Assembly: GCA_963790805.1 (NCBI GenBank)
Contig: CAWBPL010000002.1
Coordinates: forward strand, 192,696-256,695
DNA: 64,000 bases
DNA from: Candidatus Gottesmanbacteria bacterium
GTDB taxonomy: Bacteria; Patescibacteriota; Microgenomatia; UBA10105; UBA927
Direction of reading: 5' to 3'
A program made the translations under genes and the position numbers. Positions 3,782 through 42,007 of the stretch are shown piece by piece. Within the stretch, counting starts at the first letter, position 1. Each line of letters starts with the position of its first letter. The notes under the pieces are model-generated. The model saw nothing but the letters and a program-made list of their open reading frames with translations, did no database searches and was not told the origin of the DNA.

Positions 3782-5434
3782 TTACGTTAATTGTTCCGGC
3801 TTGTCTCCATCAATCACTTCACTCGCCGGCTCCAAGAGGACAGGACTACCTCGTCGAACACGCTGCATGAGCGTAATAAATGCATGCACTTCTCCTATAT
3901 TAAAAAGCCAGGACATACCGAAATAAACGATTAATCCGGCCCCCATTGAGAGCGATGTCAATAAAATAAGACCAAATGTGCGTGTTGTATCAAAAATTAA
4001 CTGGTCAAATAATTTCAGCGGAATATATACAGCTATTCCGGCTAATAAGGCCGCGATGAGCATTTTTACCGGCGGGAGAAACAGTGTGCCTTTAGAAAAA
4101 TGTCCTATTTTTTTATCTAAAACGATGAATAATATCAATGCATTCAAAATACTTGCTATAGACGTTGACAATCCGAGTGACCACACGGGAAGATGGAACA
4201 CAAGAATAAAAATGATACTGATGATGCTATTCGTCAAAATTGAAATAACACTTATGATAACGGGCGTTTTTGTATCATACAGGGCGTAAAATCCCCGTGC
4301 TAATACATGGACTGCCGATTGGGCAAACAGCGAAAGACTAAACATAAAAAGGGTCATGCCGGTCAGATATGTTGCTTGCCAGTCAAATCGTGCAGCACCA
4401 AAAATGAGACGAACAATTGGTATTCGAAGAACTATAAACAATACGGAAGAAGGTAATACAAAAAATAAAATCTGGTGGATCGCGCTGATAATCGATTTTT
4501 TATATTGATCCTTGTCTTCTTTGACAGATGCTGCGGAAAGCGTCGGAAGCGCAGCCTGAGCGATGGTCGCTCCAAACAGCCCGACAGGTACCTGTTGAAG
4601 ATTTTGCGCGAAATTAAATATTGTGACCATGCGGGCACCCAGAAGGCTTGACATCATAAGATCAACGGTCGAGTCAATCTGAGATACTGCAAGGCCAAGC
4701 GTTCGCGGACCGATAAGTCGTCCCACTTCCCTCACTCCCTTGTTATGAAAATCAAAGCTGAATGAATGTCGATAGCCAACTTTTAAAAGAACAGGGAGTT
4801 GTATGAGCATGAACAACAATGCTCCCAACCCGACCCCTGCAACCGGAGCATAAAGACCAATAGTGCCGGATAACGTAATTATTCCAATAATAATGCCCAC
4901 GTTATAGACAACCGGAGCAAGGGCAGGCATAAGAAACAAATTGTAGGATTGGAGTATTCCGGTAAAAAAATTTCCGACAAGAAGCGGGATTACCTGACAA
5001 ACGATCATAATTCTACTAAACGTCGCCATGAGTTGAATCTGTTTATCTGAAAACCCAGGTGCCAAAAATCTGGAAAACTCTCGCGACCAAATAAATATGG
5101 GGAGCGCCAGTATAGCAAAAAGAACAACGCTTATATTGGTAACGATCGCCGCCATGTGCCATCCTTCTTTTTCTTTCTCCTGAGTTAAATATTTCGTAAA
5201 AACAGGAATAAACGCACTGGTGAGGGCCCCAGTAACCAACAGTTCAAAAATCATATTGGGAAGTCGAAATGCGGCAAAATAGACACCTAATTCATCCGGC
5301 GCAAATCGCGCCGCCAACAGGCGATCACGTACCAAACCCAATATACGCGAAGTGAGTACCATTGAAACGAGAATTATCGCAGCGGATCCAACCGAATTCT
5401 GTTTTCTGGTTATAATATCCCAAACACGTTTCAT
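3782..5434 (-). CDS. murJ: Lipid II flippase MurJ (MviN)
   Basis: SRILGLVRDRLLAARF...GVYFAAFRLPNMIFELLVTGALTSAFIPVF is a classic MurJ N-terminus. The protein is polytopic and 550 aa long. Confidence 0.9.
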   Translation of the reverse strand: MKRVWDIITRKQNSVGSAAIILVSMVLTSRILGLVRDRLLAARFAPDELGVYFAAFRLPNMIFELLVTGALTSAFIPVFTKYLTQEKEKEGWHMAAIVTNISVVLFAILALPIFIWSREFSRFLAPGFSDKQIQLMATFSRIMIVCQVIPLLVGNFFTGILQSYNLFLMPALAPVVYNVGIIIGIITLSGTIGLYAPVAGVGLGALLFMLIQLPVLLKVGYRHSFSFDFHNKGVREVGRLIGPRTLGLAVSQIDSTVDLMMSSLLGARMVTIFNFAQNLQQVPVGLFGATIAQAALPTLSAASVKEDKDQYKKSIISAIHQILFFVLPSSVLFIVLRIPIVRLIFGAARFDWQATYLTGMTLFMFSLSLFAQSAVHVLARGFYALYDTKTPVIISVISILTNSIISIIFILVFHLPVWSLGLSTSIASILNALILFIVLDKKIGHFSKGTLFLPPVKMLIAALLAGIAVYIPLKLFDQLIFDTTRTFGLILLTSLSMGAGLIVYFGMSWLFNIGEVHAFITLMQRVRRGSPVLLEPASEVIDGDKPEQLT

Positions 5435-5511: not shown

Positions 5512-5520
5512 TGGTATACT
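5512..5520 (+). promoter_or_regulatory. Extended -10 promoter element (TGgTATACT) for rpsT
   Basis: TG at 5512-5513 and TATACT at 5515-5520. The rpsT ATG is at 5529, only 8 nt after the -10, with no Shine-Dalgarno in between. Confidence 0.4.
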
Positions 5521-8736: not shown

Positions 8737-9402
8737 ATGCGTTTTATAAAAAAATACTGGTACTTTACCTTCATTACCTTCATAACAGTCGGATTAGGAA
8801 TTGTGACGTTTTTAACAAGTCAACAACTTACTAAAACCACGCCCGTAGCACCGAATGTACCGCAAATTACTCCAAAAGCTGCTGAGCAAGCCTGTACCCT
8901 TACATTTAATCTCATAACGCCAACCACCAGTCTTACGCCGACTTCCACGCCAACAAGCACGCCGACTTCCACGCCAACAAGCACGCCGACTTCCACGCCA
9001 ACAAATACGCCAACACCCACGCCTCTTGCAGGGTGCAATAACTCCTGTACGGTCAACGCTGACTGTTCAAATGGATTAGTGTGTGTCAGCAGTGTTTGCC
9101 GTAACTCCAGCTGTTCTGACCAGACGAACTGCACGTGCCAATCAAATACTCCCACACCCACGCCAACACCGGTCCTGTCGGGTTGTAACAATGTCTGCAC
9201 CTATAATACAGATTGTACGAGCGGACTTGCCTGCGTTGGAGGATTCTGTCGAAATCCTGTATGCTCAGATAAAACAAGCTGCGTGTGCCAAACCACAACG
9301 CCAACACCTCAGACACCGGTTACAGGAACAGGCCCCTCTGTTCTTGGGGCATCTGTCGTTAGTGGAGCATTTCTCTTAATTCTTCTCGGCCTCGCTTTAT
9401 AA
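8737..9402 (+). CDS. Cys-rich repeat surface protein with Pro/Thr linkers and a C-terminal PxTG plus TM anchor
   Basis: N-terminal TM, a (TSTP)n linker, and two 6-Cys modules GCNNxCTxNxDCxxGLxCVxxxCRNxxCSDxTxCxCQ. The tail is TPVTGTG plus a hydrophobic helix. Confidence 0.6.
   Translation: MRFIKKYWYFTFITFITVGLGIVTFLTSQQLTKTTPVAPNVPQITPKAAEQACTLTFNLITPTTSLTPTSTPTSTPTSTPTSTPTSTPTNTPTPTPLAGCNNSCTVNADCSNGLVCVSSVCRNSSCSDQTNCTCQSNTPTPTPTPVLSGCNNVCTYNTDCTSGLACVGGFCRNPVCSDKTSCVCQTTTPTPQTPVTGTGPSVLGASVVSGAFLLILLGLAL
8935..9006 (+). repeat. 24-bp in-frame tandem repeat, 3 copies, encoding the TPTSTPTS linker
   Basis: ACGCCGACTTCCACGCCAACAAGC occurs at 8935-8958 and 8959-8982 (both perfect) and at 8983-9006 (22/24). 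Confidence 0.9.
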
Positions 9403-32279: not shown

Positions 32280-32951
32280 ATGAACCAACAAATATCTCGG
32301 TTCATGAATGATCTTCGAGTACTTCTTACAACTGCCCTGACCACTCAATCCGAAGAAGGAAGTGGTTTGGGAATATTTTTGCGGGCGCTCCTTCGAAAGC
32401 GAAAATTCAGTTTCCGTCAGGTCGTCGGCGTAAACCTCGCAGGATTAGCGTTTTTTACCGCTGTCGTCGTACCCCAGAGCCAGTCGATGGTCTCAGATCT
32501 TGTCGTCTCTCAACAAACACAAAGAAATGTCATCGTTGTTGATGATTCCCCCTCACTTTTTCAGTGGCCCTTAAGAACATTCGGTATCTCGCAGGAATTT
32601 TCGGTTGTCCACCCCGGAATGGATTTAACCGACCCTATCGGAACAACAATCTATCCGATCGGCGATGGGGTTGTTACGTGGATTAAATATTTATCTTACG
32701 GCTACGGATACCACGTCTTGATAACAAATGATGACGGTGTTCAATCATTGTATGCGCACATGTCAAAAATATTCGTTCATGAGGGACAGTCTGTTGCCAA
32801 AACAACCGCACTTGGAGAAGTGGGTGTAACAGGTTGGACGACAGGACCCCACGTGCATCTTGAAGTCTATGAGCAGGGTTCAGCAACCAATCCTCTCGAA
32901 GTATTACCACAGCTTAAAGACGTTAACGAGATAGCTGAAGCGCAGCAATAA
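32280..32951 (+). CDS. M23-family peptidoglycan metalloendopeptidase
   Basis: HPGMDL...IYPIGDGVV...GYHVLITNDDGVQSLYAHMS...GWTTGPHVHLEVY contains the HxxxD and HxH motifs. Confidence 0.8.
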   Translation: MNQQISRFMNDLRVLLTTALTTQSEEGSGLGIFLRALLRKRKFSFRQVVGVNLAGLAFFTAVVVPQSQSMVSDLVVSQQTQRNVIVVDDSPSLFQWPLRTFGISQEFSVVHPGMDLTDPIGTTIYPIGDGVVTWIKYLSYGYGYHVLITNDDGVQSLYAHMSKIFVHEGQSVAKTTALGEVGVTGWTTGPHVHLEVYEQGSATNPLEVLPQLKDVNEIAEAQQ

Positions 32952-33786
32952 TCATCACGGCGGCAGCAGAAAACCGGATCGCATAAACCTTCATCGTATG
33001 TTTCTCCAGTAATTTCGGGGCAAAAAAAGAAAACAGTACCCCGAGTACCACTGTAAGGGGTGCTGACATGATTGCTGCAGAAATGCCGATATTTATTGCA
33101 TAAGCTGCATTTGCTGCAAAAATTCCCATTGTTGCGAACAATGAGTGTCCGACAACGCCGCTCCATTGGTCCCGTTGAATTTTTCTCACATCATCTCGGA
33201 AAAACCAGATGGTCGGAATAATAAATACGAACGTTAAAAAGTTTCCCCATAACGTGACTTCCCAAAACCCCTCGAACTTCATAGCATATTTCGTCGCTGC
33301 AGCAAACATCGCCGAACAGATGGTTGTAATAATCGCGAGTAAAATAGACCGATGAAAAAACGACTTAAGCGTTAATCGCTCGTCCATAGTGATAAAAAGA
33401 CCGGCAAAAAGCATAAGAACTATTAATCCTATCTGATAACCCGCTATTCGTTCATGAAATAAGAAGACCCCTAAAACGACGCTAGCTGCCGTGCGAAGGT
33501 TATACATGGGTCCCAACACCGACACGTCAAGCGCATACATGGCAAAAATAAAAAGAGTCCCCGCAAGTGTTGAAAAAAATCCAAGCAATAACAGCGGCCC
33601 CCAGTGCGTCGGCATTTGTACGTGTGCCGCAAGTGCAAACGGTAAGGTAAAAATCACAATGAGCAGGTTCCAAATGAAATTAAAAAGCCACGGATTGGAT
33701 AATTGATGTTTACTGGAAAGTTTTCCAGAAACTACACCAAGTGAGTAACTCAAATTGGCAAGCCATGCAAAAATATAAAACGGCAT
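32923..33786 (-). CDS. EamA/DMT-superfamily transporter
   Basis: 10-TM protein with duplicated EamA-like halves. The start is set at the ATG at 33786 (MPFYIF) rather than the GTG at 33804, because the upstream repeat element runs to 33795. Confidence 0.7.
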   Translation of the reverse strand: MPFYIFAWLANLSYSLGVVSGKLSSKHQLSNPWLFNFIWNLLIVIFTLPFALAAHVQMPTHWGPLLLLGFFSTLAGTLFIFAMYALDVSVLGPMYNLRTAASVVLGVFLFHERIAGYQIGLIVLMLFAGLFITMDERLTLKSFFHRSILLAIITTICSAMFAAATKYAMKFEGFWEVTLWGNFLTFVFIIPTIWFFRDDVRKIQRDQWSGVVGHSLFATMGIFAANAAYAINIGISAAIMSAPLTVVLGVLFSFFAPKLLEKHTMKVYAIRFSAAAVMIIAALQLSR

Positions 33787-33794
33787 GATGAGGA

Positions 33795-33888
33795 AAGTAT
33801 ACACCCATCTTACTCAGATTTGCATCCCGATCCGATCGGGAGAAAAAATTGATTAGATGAGCTGGATACCCGAAGGGTATAACAAAAT
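33795..33888 (-). repeat. Copy A of a ~94-nt structured intergenic element (candidate 5' leader RNA)
   Basis: 84/94 aligned positions are identical to 35697-35789 by hand alignment. It contains the hairpin AUACCC-UUCG-GGGUAU (33866-33880) and the palindrome CCCGATCCGATCGGG (33826-33840). It fills the cutA-to-EamA gap. Confidence 0.8.
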
Positions 33889-33896
33889 ACGGGGGG

Positions 33897-34223
33897 TTAT
33901 TTTATTTCTCCTTTAATCCATTCATAATATTTTTTGGAAACATTCGCAACAGGAATAGCAAGAATGCATGGAGTGTCCGATGAATGAACGGCTTTCACTT
34001 GGCGCTCAACGTCGGAAAATTTCTTCCCGAGCGTCTTCACAATAAGAATCGTCTCGTGGCCTTCTTCAAATTTTCCGGTTTTTGGCGGCCAGAAATAAAC
34101 GGAGTTCATACCGGGAATAATATTAATGCAACCACACAAACGTTTATCCAGTAAATGAGTTCCGATCTTTTTCGCCTCATCGGAATCTTTGCATGTTATG
34201 TAAACAAGAATCATGTCAGTCAT
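33897..34223 (-). CDS. cutA: CutA divalent-cation tolerance protein
   Basis: ILVYITCKDSDEAKKIGTHLLDKRLCGCINIIPG..SVYFW and a C-terminal YYEWI are typical of the ~105-aa CutA1. Confidence 0.8.
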   Translation of the reverse strand: MTDMILVYITCKDSDEAKKIGTHLLDKRLCGCINIIPGMNSVYFWPPKTGKFEEGHETILIVKTLGKKFSDVERQVKAVHSSDTPCILAIPVANVSKKYYEWIKGEIK

Positions 34224-34230
34224 ATATACG

Positions 34231-34695
34231 TTATAACAGTTTATACATGGTTATGGAATCAGTGCCCCGCGAAAATCCCATTTTGGCATACCACCCGAGA
34301 CCTTTTATGTTTTTAGGGTTTACGTTAAATGTCAGGGAGTCTATATGCTTTTTTTTCAGTCTTCGCATAGTTTCCTGCATAAGTTTGTTGCCGATCCCCC
34401 GTCTTCGGTATCTTTCATCGACAAAAATCCCGGTACAATATCCCCACCCTCTCATCACGTATGTTATGCACATACCGACCGGTTCTTTTCTTCCGTTTTT
34501 GGCAACGAGAAATATATCATTTCGGGGATGTTGAATCCAATCAATAATCGCTTTTTTGGGGTACCATTTTGTATCATTATCGCTCCAGAGTTCCGTGTTA
34601 TCTTCCCCCCAGCGCCAGAGGCGGTCTACGTCGTTTAATGTCGGTTTCGTAATATGAATGCTTCCGTTACTTTTTTTCTGTGTACCCGTATACAA
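34231..34695 (-). CDS. GNAT-family N-acetyltransferase
   Basis: GIFVDERYRRRGIGNKLMQETMRRL is the acetyl-CoA binding motif A (R/Q-x-x-G-x-G/A). The start appears to be TTG behind GAGGTG. Confidence 0.75.
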   Translation of the reverse strand: MYTGTQKKSNGSIHITKPTLNDVDRLWRWGEDNTELWSDNDTKWYPKKAIIDWIQHPRNDIFLVAKNGRKEPVGMCITYVMRGWGYCTGIFVDERYRRRGIGNKLMQETMRRLKKKHIDSLTFNVNPKNIKGLGWYAKMGFSRGTDSITMYKLL

Positions 34696-34723
34696 TCACC
34701 TCAAACCATGAATCTTGGATAAA

Positions 34724-34747
34724 GGTAAAAGGCCCCAAGCGGGACCT
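34724..34747 (-). terminator. Candidate rho-independent terminator after the alpha/beta hydrolase gene
   Basis: The minus strand reads AGGTCCC-GCTT-GGGGCCT followed by TTTTACCTTT. The stem has one mismatch. Confidence 0.4.
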
Positions 34748-34808
34748 GTTCTTTTTCCTGTTATTATCCGTGGAATACCCATGATACTATCACAATTAAG
34801 GCACTTTG

Positions 34809-35690
34809 TTAAATCGAGGACACCCATGAAGAGATTGCGGCAACGGCCTCTTTTTCCTTACCAACATAACTATGCGTCGTCTCAGGAATAATAATGCTTG
34901 CATAGTTTGTTGACCGCTGATAATGATCAAACACCTGTTTAATCTTATCAACTGGTTTATTGGCAGTTTCATCATTTTGAGCAAAAACCATAAGAAGCGG
35001 CTTCCGTATTTTCTGAAAAACTGTCAGCACGTTTTTTTTATCCCAATAATTAAATACATCTTCCTTCGATCCGGGCGAAAGAAGACTAAGCCATCGCTTT
35101 GCAGTCATCGGAAAGAAATGCCGTAATAATATTTCATCACCCTTCCCCTCTGCTACTAATTTCTTCATGAGCGCGAGATTTTCATCATAAAGTTTTCTGT
35201 CTGTATTTTTAGAAAATCTATCCGACATCGGACCAGCCAATACAACGGCAATCATCCGCGGATCGCGTCTCATCCCCGCGTAATAGCACGCTTTATTTGC
35301 CCCAGTGCTGTGTCCAACCAAAACAACTTCACTAAATCCCTCACTCGCTAAAAATCCGATTGCGGCATCAATGTCATAAACGCAATCGGCAAATACTTCC
35401 AGACCTGCACCTATCATCTTATGCGCAAATCCTGTCTTTTTTCTTCCGTCGGTTTTCCGCATATTCGCAACGACGTCATGTCCGCGGTTATTGAAAGCGG
35501 CAAATCCCCACCCAAATCTTTCGCATTCATCGGCAAACGCATCATTAATAAGCGGATCCCCGTAAAATCTTCCCGTGAGTCCATGTATCCACAAGATCGC
35601 CTTCTTTCCCGGCTTCGCCGGCCTGAAAAATATTCCCTGATGCACCAATCCGTCACCAGTCGTAATTTCCGATAGATAAAAGGGGTTCAT
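34809..35690 (-). CDS. Alpha/beta-fold hydrolase (DUF1749-like)
   Basis: AILWIHGLTGRFYG and VVLVGHSTGANKACYY (GxSxG elbow). A catalytic His is plausible at ETTHSY. Confidence 0.7.
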   Translation of the reverse strand: MNPFYLSEITTGDGLVHQGIFFRPAKPGKKAILWIHGLTGRFYGDPLINDAFADECERFGWGFAAFNNRGHDVVANMRKTDGRKKTGFAHKMIGAGLEVFADCVYDIDAAIGFLASEGFSEVVLVGHSTGANKACYYAGMRRDPRMIAVVLAGPMSDRFSKNTDRKLYDENLALMKKLVAEGKGDEILLRHFFPMTAKRWLSLLSPGSKEDVFNYWDKKNVLTVFQKIRKPLLMVFAQNDETANKPVDKIKQVFDHYQRSTNYASIIIPETTHSYVGKEKEAVAAISSWVSSI

Positions 35691-35696
35691 GTGGAT

Positions 35697-35789
35697 AAGT
35701 ATACACCCACCTTACTCAGCTATGCATCCCGATCCGATCGGGAGAAAAATCTGATTAGGCGGGCGGATACCCGAAGGGTATAGCAAAAT
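35697..35789 (-). repeat. Copy B of the ~94-nt structured intergenic element (candidate 5' leader RNA)
   Basis: It has the same two hairpins as copy A with 100% identical stems. It ends 6 nt before the hydrolase ATG (35690) and fills the whole gap to the upstream stop (35792). Confidence 0.8.
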
Positions 35790-36423: not shown

Positions 36424-37059
36424 GTGAACATTCATATTCAAATACTCAATGCCAACGGACGGCTTACGCCGTTTATAAATACTATAGAAACGGCATCAAA
36501 ATCCGCAATCGATCACGTAACGAAATATATTCCCGTTGATAACGTCGATATTATTTTCTACGACCATCCCGAGCGGGCTATCGATCATCTGGGATTCGGC
36601 GGATATTCCCTTACGGACAATGTTGCGATGATTCCGGTAAATCCGAAGTTTCCAGAACTGGAAATACGTTTAAAAGAAAATTTCGTACGGACTCTGTCGC
36701 ATGAACTCTATCATTGCCTGCGACACTATACGTATACCAAGAGACACACGCTTTTCGAATCACTGGTGAATGAGGGGCTTGCCGATCATTTCGATATTGA
36801 AATAAATAAAAAAGAGCCGGAAAAGTGGGACACGGCGCTTGATAAAAAACAGGTTGAAGAATGGACGAAGCGCGCGAAGAAAATATGGAACAGTTATAAC
36901 TACAATCATCCTGCATGGTTTTTGGGATCAAAAATACTTACCATCCCCCATTGGGCCGGTTACAGCATCGGATTTTCAATCATCGAGAAATATCTGCAAA
37001 AACATCCGGACAAAAAACCTTCGAATCTTTATAACGTTGAGGCAAAAGAATTTTTGTAA
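36424..37059 (+). CDS. Putative Zn-dependent peptidase (DUF2268-like, HExxH)
   Basis: LSHELYHCLRH (HExxH) followed by NEGLADHF (third ligand region). The start appears to be GTG. Confidence 0.55.
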   Translation: MNIHIQILNANGRLTPFINTIETASKSAIDHVTKYIPVDNVDIIFYDHPERAIDHLGFGGYSLTDNVAMIPVNPKFPELEIRLKENFVRTLSHELYHCLRHYTYTKRHTLFESLVNEGLADHFDIEINKKEPEKWDTALDKKQVEEWTKRAKKIWNSYNYNHPAWFLGSKILTIPHWAGYSIGFSIIEKYLQKHPDKKPSNLYNVEAKEFL

Positions 37060-37174
37060 TATTTTATAGCATATATTTTAGGCCGTTATTGCAACCTAAC
37101 CCGAATTTTTATACAATAGCGACTACTTATTGAGGTTTTCCTCGTTCTCAAACTTCTGCCAGTTCGCGATAATT

Positions 37175-38011
37175 ATGAACGTAGACAGTGATTATCGATA
37201 TCATTTTCAAGAAATCTTATCACCCGAGGATATCTATACACGCCTCGCCCTCCCGTTATCAGATGTTGATCGTCAAAATCTTTTAAAAATGCTCGTCGGT
37301 TGGAAAATTGCCAATAGAGTACGCGACGGCCAAACAATAGGACTAGGTTCCGGAACAACTTCTGAAGCTGCAATTCGAGCGATCGGTGAACGGTTACACC
37401 ACAAAAAAAGCCTTCAAGTTGCCGGCATCGCTACCTCTAGAAAATTAGCAGTTCTTGCGGGAAAATTGGGAATATACGTGGAAGATTTTGATACCACTCT
37501 TAATGGTATTCGTACTACCCCGAAAGGCGTACAAGACGTCGTTTGGGGATTTGACGGAGCTGATGAGGTTGAAGTAATCCGTAATCAGGAAAAAATCATC
37601 GGATTTCGCATGATAAAAGGCGGCGGCGGAGCCCACACCATTGAACGGGCCAATGCAAAAAGATGTCAACAATGGATCGGCATTGTTGACGAGAGCAAAA
37701 TCGTACCAAGCTTGGGAGCTTTTCCTGTTGCAGTGGAAGTTATACCGAATCAGGAAGAACATGTGAGAGCAGCTCTTATGAGCGGATTCAGTCCTCTAAA
37801 TATTACTCGAAAACCTGCTTTTACTACTGATTTGGGAAATATCATATTAAATGTCAACATGGGACAAGGAAGAATTAAAGATGAGTGGGAAACACAGTGG
37901 CGGGAAATTTCCGGCGTCATCGACACCGGATTATTTATTCATGAAGTAAAACCATACGAAGTCCTCGTAGCTCACGCCGACGGATCTATCGAATCTCTAC
38001 AGCCTCAATAG
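37175..38011 (+). CDS. rpiA: Ribose-5-phosphate isomerase A
   Basis: Start trimmed to MNVDSDY. GLGSGTTSEAAIRAIGERL, GFDGADEV and KGGGGAHTIER are RpiA signatures. Confidence 0.8.
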   Translation: MNVDSDYRYHFQEILSPEDIYTRLALPLSDVDRQNLLKMLVGWKIANRVRDGQTIGLGSGTTSEAAIRAIGERLHHKKSLQVAGIATSRKLAVLAGKLGIYVEDFDTTLNGIRTTPKGVQDVVWGFDGADEVEVIRNQEKIIGFRMIKGGGGAHTIERANAKRCQQWIGIVDESKIVPSLGAFPVAVEVIPNQEEHVRAALMSGFSPLNITRKPAFTTDLGNIILNVNMGQGRIKDEWETQWREISGVIDTGLFIHEVKPYEVLVAHADGSIESLQPQ

Positions 38012-38245
38012 CGTTACGGCGAATACGAATTGCCCATAAATCAAAAAATCTTCTTCGCGTTTTGGGAAAAATTAATACGCGCGAATGAGATTTGAATGCA
38101 AAGAGCATTATTTTGACTTCAGATCTATAGGATCATATAATGCCCCTATCGCAGATAAAGAAGAAAGGAAAGTATTCCTCAACAACGAGAAATTGCTCCA
38201 ACTATTCTGACAGGTGAGTCTGAAGTTGCCAAAAAGCAACTTGCC

Positions 38246-38875
38246 ATGGTCCTGCGGTTACATCCGCGCATAAAAAGGTTCCATATTGACGTTATCACGG
38301 ACGAATTTTTGCGTAAGCAGGATGCTGACGGCAAACCGACGCTCGCTTTAGAGCAATGGATGCAATTACTACAAGAAGGATCTTTCTCAAATGACACACC
38401 AATTGATGTACACCTTATGACCGTCGATCCCATACAATATATAGCCTCATGTTACGAAACAGGGGCCGCGAGAGTGTATGGTCATATCGAACACATGACG
38501 GGCGATGCTATGGCACGCATAGAATTTATTACTGCTGTAACTCAACTTGGCATGGAAGCCGGTCTGGCACTTGATTTAACAACTCCCGTACAAGAAATTT
38601 CCGATATCGTTGATCAAACAAATCTCAACGCCGTACTGCTTCTTGCGGTTGCAGCAGGCAGACAGGGACAGAAATTTCATGAGGAAGTAATAGGAAAAAT
38701 TACTCAGTTGAGAACTCTGGGGTTTACCGGCCCGATTTGCATTGATGGCAATATGAACATGAATACTATCCCGCCTTGTCTTGATGCTGGAGCCAGCTAT
38801 GTCGGTGTTGGTAGTGCACTTGTCGGTGCCCAAACCCAAGAGCAAATGCAAATAAACTGGGCGCAGTTGCAATAA
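38246..38875 (+). CDS. rpe: Ribulose-phosphate 3-epimerase-like TIM-barrel protein; 5' end unresolved
   Basis: FHIDVITDEF and VHLMTVDP resemble the Rpe metal-binding His/Asp motifs. The in-frame upstream sequence encodes EIAPTILTG, the usual first beta strand, but has no ATG/GTG/TTG. See findings. Confidence 0.55.
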   Translation: MVLRLHPRIKRFHIDVITDEFLRKQDADGKPTLALEQWMQLLQEGSFSNDTPIDVHLMTVDPIQYIASCYETGAARVYGHIEHMTGDAMARIEFITAVTQLGMEAGLALDLTTPVQEISDIVDQTNLNAVLLLAVAAGRQGQKFHEEVIGKITQLRTLGFTGPICIDGNMNMNTIPPCLDAGASYVGVGSALVGAQTQEQMQINWAQLQ

Positions 38876-38920
38876 TCAATCCCCGCTTTCATAGGTGAGG
38901 GGTAACAATTGGAATACTAA

Positions 38921-39895
38921 CTATACCTTGATTTTTAGTGACATAAAATACCAATTGAGTCTGACTAATAAATTTATTAAAAATAAAATGCTGTAAGGTA
39001 TTAAACGGTCAAAAATTAATAACATCCCAGCTGTTAATATCGCTAAAAAGAAATTGTTGGTGGAATTCATTAGTCTTACGACCCCAAAAATGTCGCGATG
39101 GAAGAAATAATAAATAAGATAAATGATCGAAAAAAATCCAATAAACGTTCCAGCTGCTCTATATGTTATTGGGAAATCTGATCCTGAAATCTTTGGTTTT
39201 TCAGATGTCTGTGTCAAATCCTCCAAATCATTATATGAATAAGGAGTGAAAATTCCTGCTGCGAAATCTTTAGAATTTTTAATTTTTTTCCCAAAAAAAT
39301 ATAAATTCACTTTTTTCAAAAAATTATTTGTTATTGGTATTAATTCTAATACTATTTTTTGCAAATATACTTGCATCCTAAATAATATTTTTGCACCAGT
39401 TTTAATATGCAATTTATATATATACTCAACAACTTCTTTGGGTTCAACGTAGTTTTTCTTCGTTAAATCATAAATTCTTTGTTCATCAAGATTAAATTCA
39501 TATCTAGAAGTTATTTCAAGATCCACTGGTTGTCTTGTCGCTTTGCTTTCACTAACTGATTCTTTAGTCGGTGAATCTTTATCTAAAAAATAGAAATTAT
39601 TCTTAATCAAGTAACGACTGGATTTAATAACTGCAACATAAAGCGGTACCTTTTTAGCATCTTTTGATTCATGTAAATCCTTAGTCAAATACCATACTCT
39701 AATCATCGCAACAGAATCGTTTTTACCATTTGGGAATTTTACAGGAATAAAAGCATTATTTTTTTGATAGTCTTTAAGCAAACTTAAACCCACAGCCTCA
39801 CTACTATCTTGCCATGGAATAATTTCCACGTCTTTTATTGTGGTAAAAAGATCTGAAATATGTTTAGTTTCCGGAGAAATGTTTATCGTTGACAT
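38921..39895 (-). CDS. Hypothetical membrane protein encoded by a strongly AT-rich gene
   Basis: 324 aa, Lys/Asn/Ile/Phe-rich, with 3 C-terminal TM helices. Hand counts of two 60-nt lines gave 27% and 13% GC, far below the neighbouring genes. Confidence 0.45.
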   Translation of the reverse strand: MSTINISPETKHISDLFTTIKDVEIIPWQDSSEAVGLSLLKDYQKNNAFIPVKFPNGKNDSVAMIRVWYLTKDLHESKDAKKVPLYVAVIKSSRYLIKNNFYFLDKDSPTKESVSESKATRQPVDLEITSRYEFNLDEQRIYDLTKKNYVEPKEVVEYIYKLHIKTGAKILFRMQVYLQKIVLELIPITNNFLKKVNLYFFGKKIKNSKDFAAGIFTPYSYNDLEDLTQTSEKPKISGSDFPITYRAAGTFIGFFSIIYLIYYFFHRDIFGVVRLMNSTNNFFLAILTAGMLLIFDRLIPYSILFLINLLVRLNWYFMSLKIKV

Positions 39896-39961: not shown

Positions 39962-41628
<1,667 letters not shown>

Positions 41629-41640
41629 TTACCTCCTATA

Positions 41641-41939
41641 TTATGAAACGATCGCCAATATATCTTTCTGTTCAACGATGCATCCATTCTTCTCCATTTA
41701 CTTTTACTTCGTTGCCGCCCCATTTTTTATACATGACCTTCATCGCCGACTTTCACAACCATGGGGACTTTTTTTCCTTTCTCATCAGTGGTGCCGGGGC
41801 CGACGGCCATAATTTCGCCCATCTGGGGTTTTTCCTTCGCAGTGTCCGGAAGAATGATACCGGACGGAAGTTTTTCTTCCGCTTCAAGCGGTTTAACGAG
41901 CACATTATCAAATAACGGCTTTATGTTGGTTTTTGCCAT
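41641..41939 (-). pseudogene. groS: Co-chaperonin GroES, interrupted by two +1 frameshifts as assembled
   Basis: The ATG at 41939 sits behind AGGAGG and gives [49 protein letters not shown]...VKVGDE. The frame shifts near 41737 to [19 protein letters not shown], then near 41680 to IVEQKDILAIVS-stop. 299 nt minus 2 gives 99 codons. Confidence 0.8.
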
Positions 41940-42007
41940 AAAGACCTCCTTTTTAAATAAATAACCTGATTTTTTTGTGTGGGCTGCCACACACTTCAGC
42001 AAAACTG

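Follow-up and report, generated by a model that had tools for sequence, protein, structure and literature searches.

A strand-specific two-hairpin element fused to a promoter-like core at the start codons of a NUDIX, DUF1749-hydrolase and EamA gene cluster in Gottesmanbacteria-like Patescibacteria

Two copies of a non-coding element are found within 64,000 nucleotides of the genome of a Candidatus Gottesmanbacteria bacterium (contig CAWBPL010000002.1, positions 192,696 to 256,695; hereafter, the window), one directly upstream of a gene for an EamA/DMT transporter and the other directly upstream of a gene for a DUF1749 alpha/beta hydrolase. The element is a strongly conserved, strand-specific structure of two hairpins that is fused to a promoter-like core and is restricted to a clade. 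It is tentatively proposed to serve as a regulatory module of a NUDIX/DUF1749-hydrolase/EamA cluster in a few Gottesmanbacteria-like Patescibacteria, wherein a structured RNA would be interlaced with a leaderless promoter; the proposal stands a reasonable chance of being correct, and four competing explanations and one bolder extension are weighed against it below.

Both copies lie on the minus strand. A preliminary description of this DNA, made from its letters, had reported a repeat at 33795-33888 and 35697-35789, and alignment returned the same coordinates and the same identity; copy A (33888-33795) and copy B (35789-35697) agree at 84 of 94 columns, with the 10 differing columns comprising six transitions, three transversions, and one indel. 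Each conserved block occurs exactly twice in the window, two matches being found in none of 100 shuffles, and both copies lie within a 7.7-kb stretch of 100% identity to an independent assembly (Logan contig L001). In its full extent, copy A (33787..33888) fills the intergenic region between the CutA1 and EamA genes, its last base adjoining the ATG of EamA (33786-33784), while copy B (35691..35789) lies between a 188-aa gene of unknown function, the stop codon of which is 2 nt upstream, and the ATG of the hydrolase gene (35690-35688).

Further copies were sought using nhmmer and a covariance model, R1, built from the five copies known in the end, through 784 kb of related loci plus the window. 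The two window copies scored 106 (A) and 93 bits (B) with R1, and one copy was recovered from each of three other Gottesmanbacteria-like contigs, L085, L090, and L083; nothing else matched. In L085 (4918-5018) and L090 (6922-7018), the element precedes an EamA gene encoding a protein of 62% and 44% identity, respectively, and copy A is orthologous to both of these copies. In L083 (1763-1869), it precedes a NUDIX gene that heads the run NUDIX-EamA-hydrolase-SDR-EamA. All five copies thus belong to the same cluster, and each is co-oriented with and directly upstream of a gene, ending 7-9 nt before its ATG. The preliminary description had allowed that the repeat might prove to be without homologs anywhere, or to be scattered with no consistent orientation toward genes; what was found are homologs in three other genomes, every one of them directly upstream of a co-oriented gene of the cluster.

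The conservation of the element far surpasses that of its surroundings. With the apical hairpin set aside, identity between genomes is 84-89% for the EamA-linked copies, compared with 55-66% for the EamA coding sequences next to them, 36-46% for the third codon positions of those sequences, and about 44-61% for the encoded proteins. As this identity far exceeds that of the EamA third positions, the element must be under much stronger constraint than its neighbors. Relatives of the hydrolase and EamA proteins occur in Patescibacteria, mostly labelled as Gottesmanbacteria, the closest of them being 60-67% identical. Searches beyond the related loci were negative: the exact core 27-mer has no match in the Genome Taxonomy Database (GTDB) genomes, among the representatives of which the source genome is not included; 80 hydrolase loci from GTDB genomes are without the element; the two-hairpin pattern has no match in viral contigs; and blastn matched the element to nothing in plasmids and phages. 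Several candidate matches were dismissed. Those in the closest GTDB relative (L002) and in the JGI metagenomes (L082, a high-GC contig and the single match to the two-hairpin pattern there) both lie inside coding sequence and were attributed to chance. The 14-mer GATGGGTGTATACT has 116 matches in viral contigs, none of which nhmmer could extend past the seed, and two EamA homologs (P0173 and P0208), whose N-terminal extensions look like a translated element, are preceded by simple leaderless promoters only and stand in a different genomic context.

Two hairpins form when the sense strand of the element is folded: P1, which is small, and P2, which is long and has three tiers. P1 of copy A (33866..33880, minus strand) is AUACCC-UUC-GGGUAU, and folding places its counterpart in copy B at 35767..35781. 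The stem AUACCC/GGGUAU had been recognized in the preliminary description, although with a UUCG tetraloop; the loop is the three nucleotides UUC, giving 6+3+6 = 15 nt. P2 occupies 33802..33864 in copy A (minimum free energy [MFE] -27.1 kcal/mol, z -2.4) and 35704..35765 in copy B (-36.5 kcal/mol, z -3.3). In copy A, it consists of a basal stem (C/GCUCAUCU with AGAUGGGU/G), an internal loop (AA/GUA), a middle stem (UCA..UUU with AAA..UGA), a second loop (UUC/UGC), and an apical hairpin, UCCCGAU-CGG-AUCGGGA (33841-33825). In copy B, the basal stem is CGCCCGCCU with AGGUGGGUG, the middle stem is UCAG/CUGA, and the apex is the same as in copy A (35743-35727). The second hairpin described earlier, the palindrome CCCGAUC/GAUCGGG, does exist, but only as the replaceable apical stem of P2, with other sequences taking its place in other genomes. 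The first of the variable segments, thought to lie outside the two hairpins (GCUCAUCU in A, GCCCGCCU in B), was found to be paired: it is the 5' strand of the basal stem of P2, and its partners, AGAUGGGU (A) and AGGUGGGU (B), stand directly before TATACT within the 3' block AAG(A/G)UGGGUG. A mini-ORF inside P2 (AUG, two codons, UGA) was considered and rejected, as it is not kept in L085.

Comparison of the two window copies provides a first indication that this fold is maintained. Three differences in the 5' strand of the basal stem and the single A/G difference in the 3' block preserve pairing between A and B, with U-A becoming C-G through changes on both sides, A-U becoming G-U, and U-G becoming C-G. 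When substitutions equal in number and kind were placed at random in simulation, approximately 1% of trials combined five or more changes at paired sites with no more than one pair broken and one double change that was compensatory, and the preservation of pairs between A and B alone carries a p of about 0.01-0.03. The sense strand is the more stable of the two when folded, owing to its G-U pairs (-27.1 vs. -25.0 kcal/mol for the antisense strand in A, and -36.5 vs. -30.1 kcal/mol in B). The folding energy alone is no evidence, however, since that of copy A is typical of random mutants of B.

The alignment of all five copies adds to this, and RNAalifold independently predicts the same P1 and P2 helices. 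In a MAFFT alignment, 89.5% of cells pair compared to 25-46% in slid controls, four pairs have changes in both partners, and two of 500 shuffles attained the covariation score; P1 pairs in 96.7% of cells of the five-sequence alignment. In an alignment fitted to the model (A6), which consequently leans toward it, 91.2% of cells pair compared to 26-45% in slid controls, seven pairs change on both sides, and none of 500 shuffles reached the score. The individual changes are instructive. P1 (AUACCC/GGGUAU in the window) acquires a U-G wobble in L085 and L083, and an A-U to G-C change together with one C-A mismatch in L090. The middle stem, UCA(G)/CUGA in the window, is UCAG/CUGA in L085 and also in L090, where the mismatched pair has been lost from both strands, and is GUAG/CUAU in L083, the change there including C-G to U-A. 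The apex is a hairpin in every copy despite being made of three unrelated sequences: UCCCGAU-CGG-AUCGGGA in the window, GCAC-AAGA-GUGC and GCAC-AAAG-GUGC in L085 and L090, respectively, and GGAC-AAAA-GUCC in L083. Conserved structure with covariation across homologs, the general mark of a structured RNA, is hence present, albeit in only five sequences. The earlier portrayal of a conserved, structured, gene-proximal element of no known family, which left open that its stems might not covary, is upheld by the homologs, by the covariation, and by the Rfam scans given below, to which strand specificity can be added.

The 3' third of the element has the features of a promoter. Each of the five copies presents a hexamer TGCAAA, TGCATA, or TACAAA, a spacer of exactly 17 nt, TATACT, a further 7 or 9 nt, and then ATG. 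In copy A (33796..33824), these are TGCAAA (33824-33819) and TATACT (33801-33796) with 9 nt to the ATG; in copy B (35698..35726), they are TGCATA (35726-35721) and TATACT (35703-35698) with 7 nt. By sequence, every copy accordingly shows the pattern of a sigma-70-type leaderless promoter, viz., TAnnnT 5-10 nt before the start and a -35-like hexamer at 16-18 nt. The same geometry is common in this genome: TATA[AC]T was found 6-9 nt before candidate starts of long ORFs in 12 cases in the window against a background of approximately 0.52 per distance, about 10 other window genes have it, and in many of the 80 GTDB loci, the hydrolase homologs have the arrangement TGnTATAMT-6/7 nt-ATG. Given that this geometry is typical of the leaderless genes of the genome, the 3' third is inferred to be a sigma-70-type promoter giving rise to a leaderless mRNA, and most of the element may not be a 5' leader at all but lie upstream of the main transcription start and hence outside the downstream mRNA. 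The start of the EamA gene itself is placed at ATG 33786 rather than at GTG 33804 because all EamA homologs begin with MPFY or MPYY.

Among the crude gene set as a whole, about one-fifth have TATA[AC]T 6-9 nt before a candidate start, often after TGn; examples in the window are at 5515, 7335, 16134, 36412, and 61352 on the plus strand and at 61344, 36374, 11168, and 5447 on the minus strand. This frequency suggests that leaderless mRNAs may be widespread in the source genome. Between 5447 and 5515, two divergent leaderless promoters stand back to back, and the intergenic region between them has an inverted repeat of the GUAGUAUUACUAC type. No comparable long hairpin ending at the -10 box was found at the other leaderless promoters of the window, and the notion that the hairpin is part of a general terminator-promoter architecture was consequently rejected.

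The structure and the promoter-like core share nucleotides. The -36..-13 stretch of the core doubles as the 3' strand of P2 and hardly varies, while the 5' strand drifts by wobble and compensatory changes, a pattern consistent with a double constraint. In L090, the loss of 1 nt from each strand of the middle stem is offset by the gain of 1 nt in the 3' internal loop, and the spacer therefore stays at 17 nt. The proposed module would thus have two layers, with the 3' third serving as a promoter 7-9 nt before the ATG for a leaderless mRNA, and the 5' two-thirds pairing with the -36..-13 region of that same promoter to form P1 and P2, the apex being free to vary. Sense RNA that enters from upstream, either by read-through from a co-oriented gene or from a start at the TGn-TATAYC box at the 5' end of the element, would fold into P1 and P2 right up to the -10 box. 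This RNA is envisaged as a cis-acting device of control or insulation, i.e., bound by a factor, an attenuator, or a processing site, that would decide the fate of transcripts arriving at the border of a gene whose expression otherwise depends on a leaderless promoter of its own. We infer, in other words, that the hairpins would act at the level of RNA on transcripts entering from upstream.

The location of the neighboring genes agrees with such a source of RNA in most cases. At four of the five copies, the stop codon of a co-oriented gene lies 1-8 nt before the start of the conserved element and 9-16 nt before P1; with that gene ending so close, its transcripts must run into P1 and P2. The 5' box overlaps the 5' arm of P1 in copy A (33876..33887, minus strand; TTTTGTTATACC), where it has the form of an extended -10 element with a hexamer ending in C, and is TTTTGCTATACC in copy B (35777..35788, minus strand). 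Its T-tract and TGnTA are kept in the four full-length copies and, as an upstream box (TTTGCTATACC), in L083, and it is homologous to the promoter TTTTCTGTTATAAT of an element-free locus, L091. TG(T/C)TATAC, raised earlier as a possible extended -10 element, is nevertheless not conserved as a -10: the hexamer degenerates to TACGCC in L090, and hexamers ending in C occur three times at 6-9 nt in the window (approximately 0.75 per distance vs. 0.39 background), with no clear leaderless enrichment. The 3' TATACT is the better candidate.

Several observations weigh against this proposal. In L083, the element is in a divergent intergenic region, where the upstream neighbor has its own promoter (TGCTATAAT-6 nt-ATG), and read-through from upstream cannot supply the RNA; the divergence of that gene leaves the 5' boxes of the element as the only possible source. 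A duplicated P1 module at this locus carries a good extended -10 element, TGGTATATT, and the L083 RNA is predicted to fold into a very stable three-way junction that includes UAUACU (-42.4 kcal/mol, z -5.4). P2 would also make a poor intrinsic terminator, as its base is not GC-rich, it was not flagged in the terminator scan, and the 8 nt following it contain five (A), four (B), or three (L083) U residues, an appearance unlike that of the canonical terminators in these loci. The -35 hexamer shares only three of six positions with TTGACA, and the transcription start, and with it the RNA that holds P1 and P2, has been deduced from sequence patterns alone. Finally, the structure was derived from the same five sequences of four genomes that are used to judge it, A6 was fitted to the model, and the near invariance of the 3' strand of P2 means that much of the "covariation" is one-sided drift through wobble pairs. 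As to the L083 duplication itself, the P1 module is repeated in tandem at 1758-1800 (TATACCCTTCGGGGTGG / TATATTCCCTTCGGGGATCC), and the three-way junction results if the first GGGGUGGUAUA pairs with UAUACUACCC, which immediately precedes the ATG.

The foremost alternative is that of the preliminary description, a classical 5' leader acting as a riboswitch or as a protein-binding site. Transcription would start upstream of P1, the two hairpins with their conserved internal loops would form an aptamer or a protein site, and control of termination, or of access to an AUG that has no Shine-Dalgarno sequence, would come from alternative pairings in which AUACCC joins either GGGUAU or GGGUGU and GGGUAU joins AUACUU. 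The distribution of conservation is of a kind typical of aptamers, the unpaired CC, AA/GUA, UUC/UGC, and UAUACU being strongly conserved while the apical stem is variable. The cluster is functionally coherent, and for NUDIX and EamA genes there is precedent of control by riboswitches, namely those of ykkC subtypes 2c and 2d (PMC7266159). Moreover, the three-way junction of L083 sequesters UAUACU up to 6 nt before the AUG, and the MFE structure of L085 also uses GGGUAU/AUACUU. AUACCC is complementary to both GGGUAU and the GGGUGU of the P2 base, and its substitutions in L090 leave both pairings possible; the alternative pairing of the 5' arm with GGGUGUAUAC that had been pointed out earlier is thus possible. 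Such pairings, however, are not consistently conserved among the copies, GGGUAU/AUACUU being weakened in L090. Neither the scan of the window region against the 4227 models of Rfam, including ykkC, guanidine, fluoride, ZTP, preQ1, and SAM, which gave no match at the gathering threshold and none at E<=10, nor scans of the L083, L085, and L090 loci, with nothing at the element copies even at E<=5, identified a family, in agreement with the earlier failure to recognize a riboswitch class. There is no Shine-Dalgarno sequence to sequester, no conserved promoter stands upstream of P1, where conservation begins at ATTTT, and the 5' box cannot yield an RNA that holds both arms of P1. The conserved geometry of -35, 17 nt, -10, and 7-9 nt points instead to a start at the ATG. 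While a conserved structured element is thus substantiated, its placement in a 5' leader is weakened and its fold differs from that first drawn; a classical leader is regarded as unlikely, though it deserves serious consideration.

An extension of the favored proposal, held to be decidedly unlikely, would make the element a new class of RNA sensor in Patescibacteria controlling a damage-control cluster of NUDIX, hydrolase, and EamA-exporter genes. Here, too, the sensor would be interlaced with a leaderless promoter, the DNA of the -35 and spacer doubling as a strand of the hairpin, and incoming transcription, a ligand, or a protein at the conserved loops would gate a gene that is both leaderless and without a Shine-Dalgarno sequence. 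Should it hold, it would represent a regulatory logic not described for riboswitches.

Next in plausibility, and quite improbable, is an explanation confined to DNA, with a promoter and with operators at which a transcription factor would bind, namely the palindrome of P1 (ATACCC-N3-GGGTAT) and the GGGT(G)TAT motifs that recur, and with hairpins that would be by-products of operator symmetry. The promoter geometry is indeed conserved, P1 is a 6-3-6 palindrome in DNA in which the A-T to G-C change of L090 is symmetric, and CTGAGTAAGATGGGTG, the promoter spacer, hardly varies, a property that is typical of operators but uncommon among spacers. The arms of P2, on the other hand, are 24-31 bp apart and vary between copies by approximately half a helical turn, which argues against a rigid DNA-binding dimer, and where the 5' arm falls short of perfect complementarity to the 3' arm, the changes mostly produce G-U pairs, which exist on the sense strand alone. 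A hairpin forms the apex in every copy, with three unrelated sequences; the apical palindrome, CCCGATCGGATCGGG, was rejected as an operator in its own right for the same reason, unrelated hairpins replacing it in three homologs. Precomputed Pfam hits for the genes around the copies (L001, L083, L085, and L090), several of which have no Pfam hit, include no transcription-factor domain.

The genes surrounding the element bear on its origin. On the minus strand of the window, the order is the 188-aa gene, copy B, the hydrolase gene (34809..35690; Pfam PF08538), a terminator, GNAT, CutA1, copy A, and the EamA gene (32923..33786; 287 aa beginning MPFY; Pfam PF00892), the two Pfam assignments confirming the downstream genes as they were first named. 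The terminator after the hydrolase gene (34747-34730, minus strand) was found by the terminator scan to be a canonical intrinsic one; it is GC-rich (GGUCCCGC..GGGGCCU plus a U-tract), and a similar, recognizably conserved terminator follows the hydrolase gene of L090 (approximately 5020-5050). The backbone common to relatives reads GroES-GroEL-unknown-hydrolase-[variable genes]-EamA-(M23, reverse strand)-PEGA/SH3-UbiA-GT4, and its right-hand side is retained in the window. The genes between hydrolase and EamA differ in every genome, being SDR, aldehyde dehydrogenase and cupin, GNAT and aldehyde dehydrogenase, GNAT and CutA, or isochorismatase and CutA. This stretch (33897-35690 in the window; also seen in L083, L085, L086, L087, L089, L090, and L091, with DLH and SDR occurring as well) constitutes a hot spot of gene-content variation within a syntenic flanking backbone.

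In most relatives, these genes are preceded by tight junctions or by a plain TGnTATAMT-6/7 nt-ATG promoter. The counterpart of the 188-aa gene in L085 overlaps the start of the hydrolase gene by 4 nt, with no element there, and in L090, the hydrolase gene has only a simple leaderless promoter in front of it. Copy B is for these reasons regarded as a derived duplicate, and it shares the apical hairpin of copy A. Within this genome, the EamA copy would have been duplicated, or carried by gene conversion, into the promoter of the hydrolase gene, an event that similar TTTTGYTATAC...TATACT flanks may have helped. A duplication reaching into the first codons (MPFY/MNPFY) was rejected, since MPFY/MPYY is native to all EamA homologs and M-x-x-F to the hydrolases. 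In the element-free locus L091 (1318-1354), the region upstream of EamA reads TTTTCTGTTATAAT-TTCCTC-ATG, which equals the two flanks of the element, 5' and 3', fused at the TATA box and is compatible with either an insertion into a -10 box or a deletion between two TATAC repeats.

Other peculiarities were noted beside copy B. Between GroEL and the 188-aa gene, the window holds genes for ribose-5-phosphate isomerase, ribulose-5-phosphate epimerase, and DUF2268 (plus strand), together with a gene of 324 aa whose function is unknown (36424-39895), while in L085, L087, and L090, the unknown gene and the hydrolase come immediately after GroEL, marking the window as locally rearranged. The groES and groEL genes (39965-41950, minus strand) are each split by a frameshift: the N-terminal half of GroEL ends ...KGYASPRIS* and resumes in another frame near 41020-41040, GroES ends ...VKVGDEGHV* and likewise resumes in another frame, and Pfam Cpn60 matches the ORF 39965-41017 only over profile positions 245-487. 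Either a long-read assembly has introduced indel errors at homopolymers here, or the pseudogenes or frameshifts are real. Farther away, a tandem 12/24-nt repeat (ACGCCGACTTCCACGCCAACAAGC...) at 8923-9035 lies inside a 221-aa ORF (8737-9399), which probably encodes a low-complexity repeat protein.

Insertion sites and variable gene content invite the thought of a domesticated or selfish small mobile element, either of the miniature inverted-repeat or palindrome-associated transposable element type (MITE/PATE; an IS200/IS605 derivative with subterminal hairpins) that inserts into TATA-type -10 boxes, or an attC-like single-strand recombination site at the border of a variable region. L091 resembles an empty site with flanks joined at TATA, both ends of the element carry TATAC, and copy B could be a secondary insertion into a formerly tight gene junction. 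Hairpins that are strand-specific, with wobbles, bulges, and a variable apex, recall transposon ends and attC sites, and the hydrolase-EamA gene content is different in every relative. It varies, however, also in relatives that are without the element. In place of the many dispersed copies expected of a MITE/PATE, there are two in the 64 kb, both in the cluster, and none elsewhere in the 784 kb of related loci, so that all five known copies sit in one cluster. The Pfam hits obtained for window ORFs between 18 and 47.6 kb and for genes of the relatives' loci contain no Y1_Tnp or other transposase, and no integrase family appears in the locus gene lists. The attC boxes RYYYAAC/GTTRRRY (R''/R') are absent; the 5' ends of the element are GTTATAC, GCTATAC, GCTATAT, GTTACGC, and GCTATAC, with GTT in only two of the five. 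Nothing matched in plasmids, phages, or viral contigs, and the copy at the orthologous position is far more conserved than neighboring synonymous sites, indicative of selection rather than decay. A mobile origin is thus also quite improbable, and is placed just after the DNA operator. As for a neutral, recent duplication of an ordinary intergenic region, the window copies, at approximately 89% identity and 1.9 kb apart, would suit it, but it is highly improbable in view of the three other genomes that retain 84-89% identity (without the apical hairpin) beside EamA proteins of only 44-61%, and of substitutions that preserve the structure.

A regulatory module of the NUDIX/hydrolase/EamA cluster thus remains the favored account. 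A non-coding element much better conserved than the neighboring coding sequence, with hairpins supported by covariation and located at the start codons of one metabolite-hydrolase/exporter cluster, provides a concrete and testable candidate for native gene control in the Candidate Phyla Radiation (CPR)/Patescibacteria. A search of the literature on leaderless mRNA and riboswitches in these bacteria found no description of their promoters or native riboswitches, the only relevant mention being one in which riboswitches figure as a prospective tool for engineering (PMC11665869). That the element overlaps a leaderless promoter further raises the question of how leaderless genes are regulated after initiation, or insulated inside runs of genes. 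With a known distribution as narrow as four genomes, the present value of the element is that of a well-defined lead.

Among known systems, the element shares with riboswitches and other cis-regulatory leaders, such as ykkC 2c/2d, its conservation, its strand specificity, its structure, and its position directly upstream of genes. A variable apical stem with conserved loops and junctions is a further likeness, as are the classes of genes under control (PMC7266159). Unlike riboswitches, it has no match in Rfam, a simple architecture of two hairpins, and neither a Shine-Dalgarno sequence nor a clear terminator as an expression platform; it also overlaps a promoter-like -35/-10 pair and may not belong to the downstream mRNA. 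The placement of TATACT, 7-9 nt ahead of the ATG, and of a hexamer exactly 17 nt farther upstream is that of sigma-70 leaderless promoters, yet the ordinary leaderless promoters here have no conserved upstream hairpins, whereas the -36..-13 stretch of the element is a strand of a covarying helix.

Intercistronic processing hairpins are exemplified by the RNase III sites between the genes of phage T7. Like these and like terminators, the element has a long, irregular hairpin of approximately 20-24 bp between co-oriented genes; the hairpin begins within 10-16 nt after the stop codon upstream and leads into a sequence moderately rich in U. It differs from intrinsic terminators in its weak U-tract (three to five of 8 nt), a stem base that is not GC-rich, and its passing unflagged through the terminator scan; from normal terminators in the conservation of its primary sequence across genomes; and from intercistronic hairpins in that the L083 copy has no co-oriented upstream gene. 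With MITE/PATE and attC sites, it has in common a length of approximately 100 nt, imperfect strand-specific hairpins, an apex that keeps its structure while its sequence varies, direct repeats (the two copies) that flank a three-gene block, and the existence of a locus like an empty site. In contrast to them, it is low in copy number, always at the start codons of one cluster, strongly conserved at an orthologous site, free of attC consensus boxes, and without a transposase or integrase in the available Pfam hits of its cluster neighbors. The element thus behaves as a cis-regulatory structured RNA would, yet outside every Rfam family, and it is best filed with promoter-proximal structured regulatory elements.

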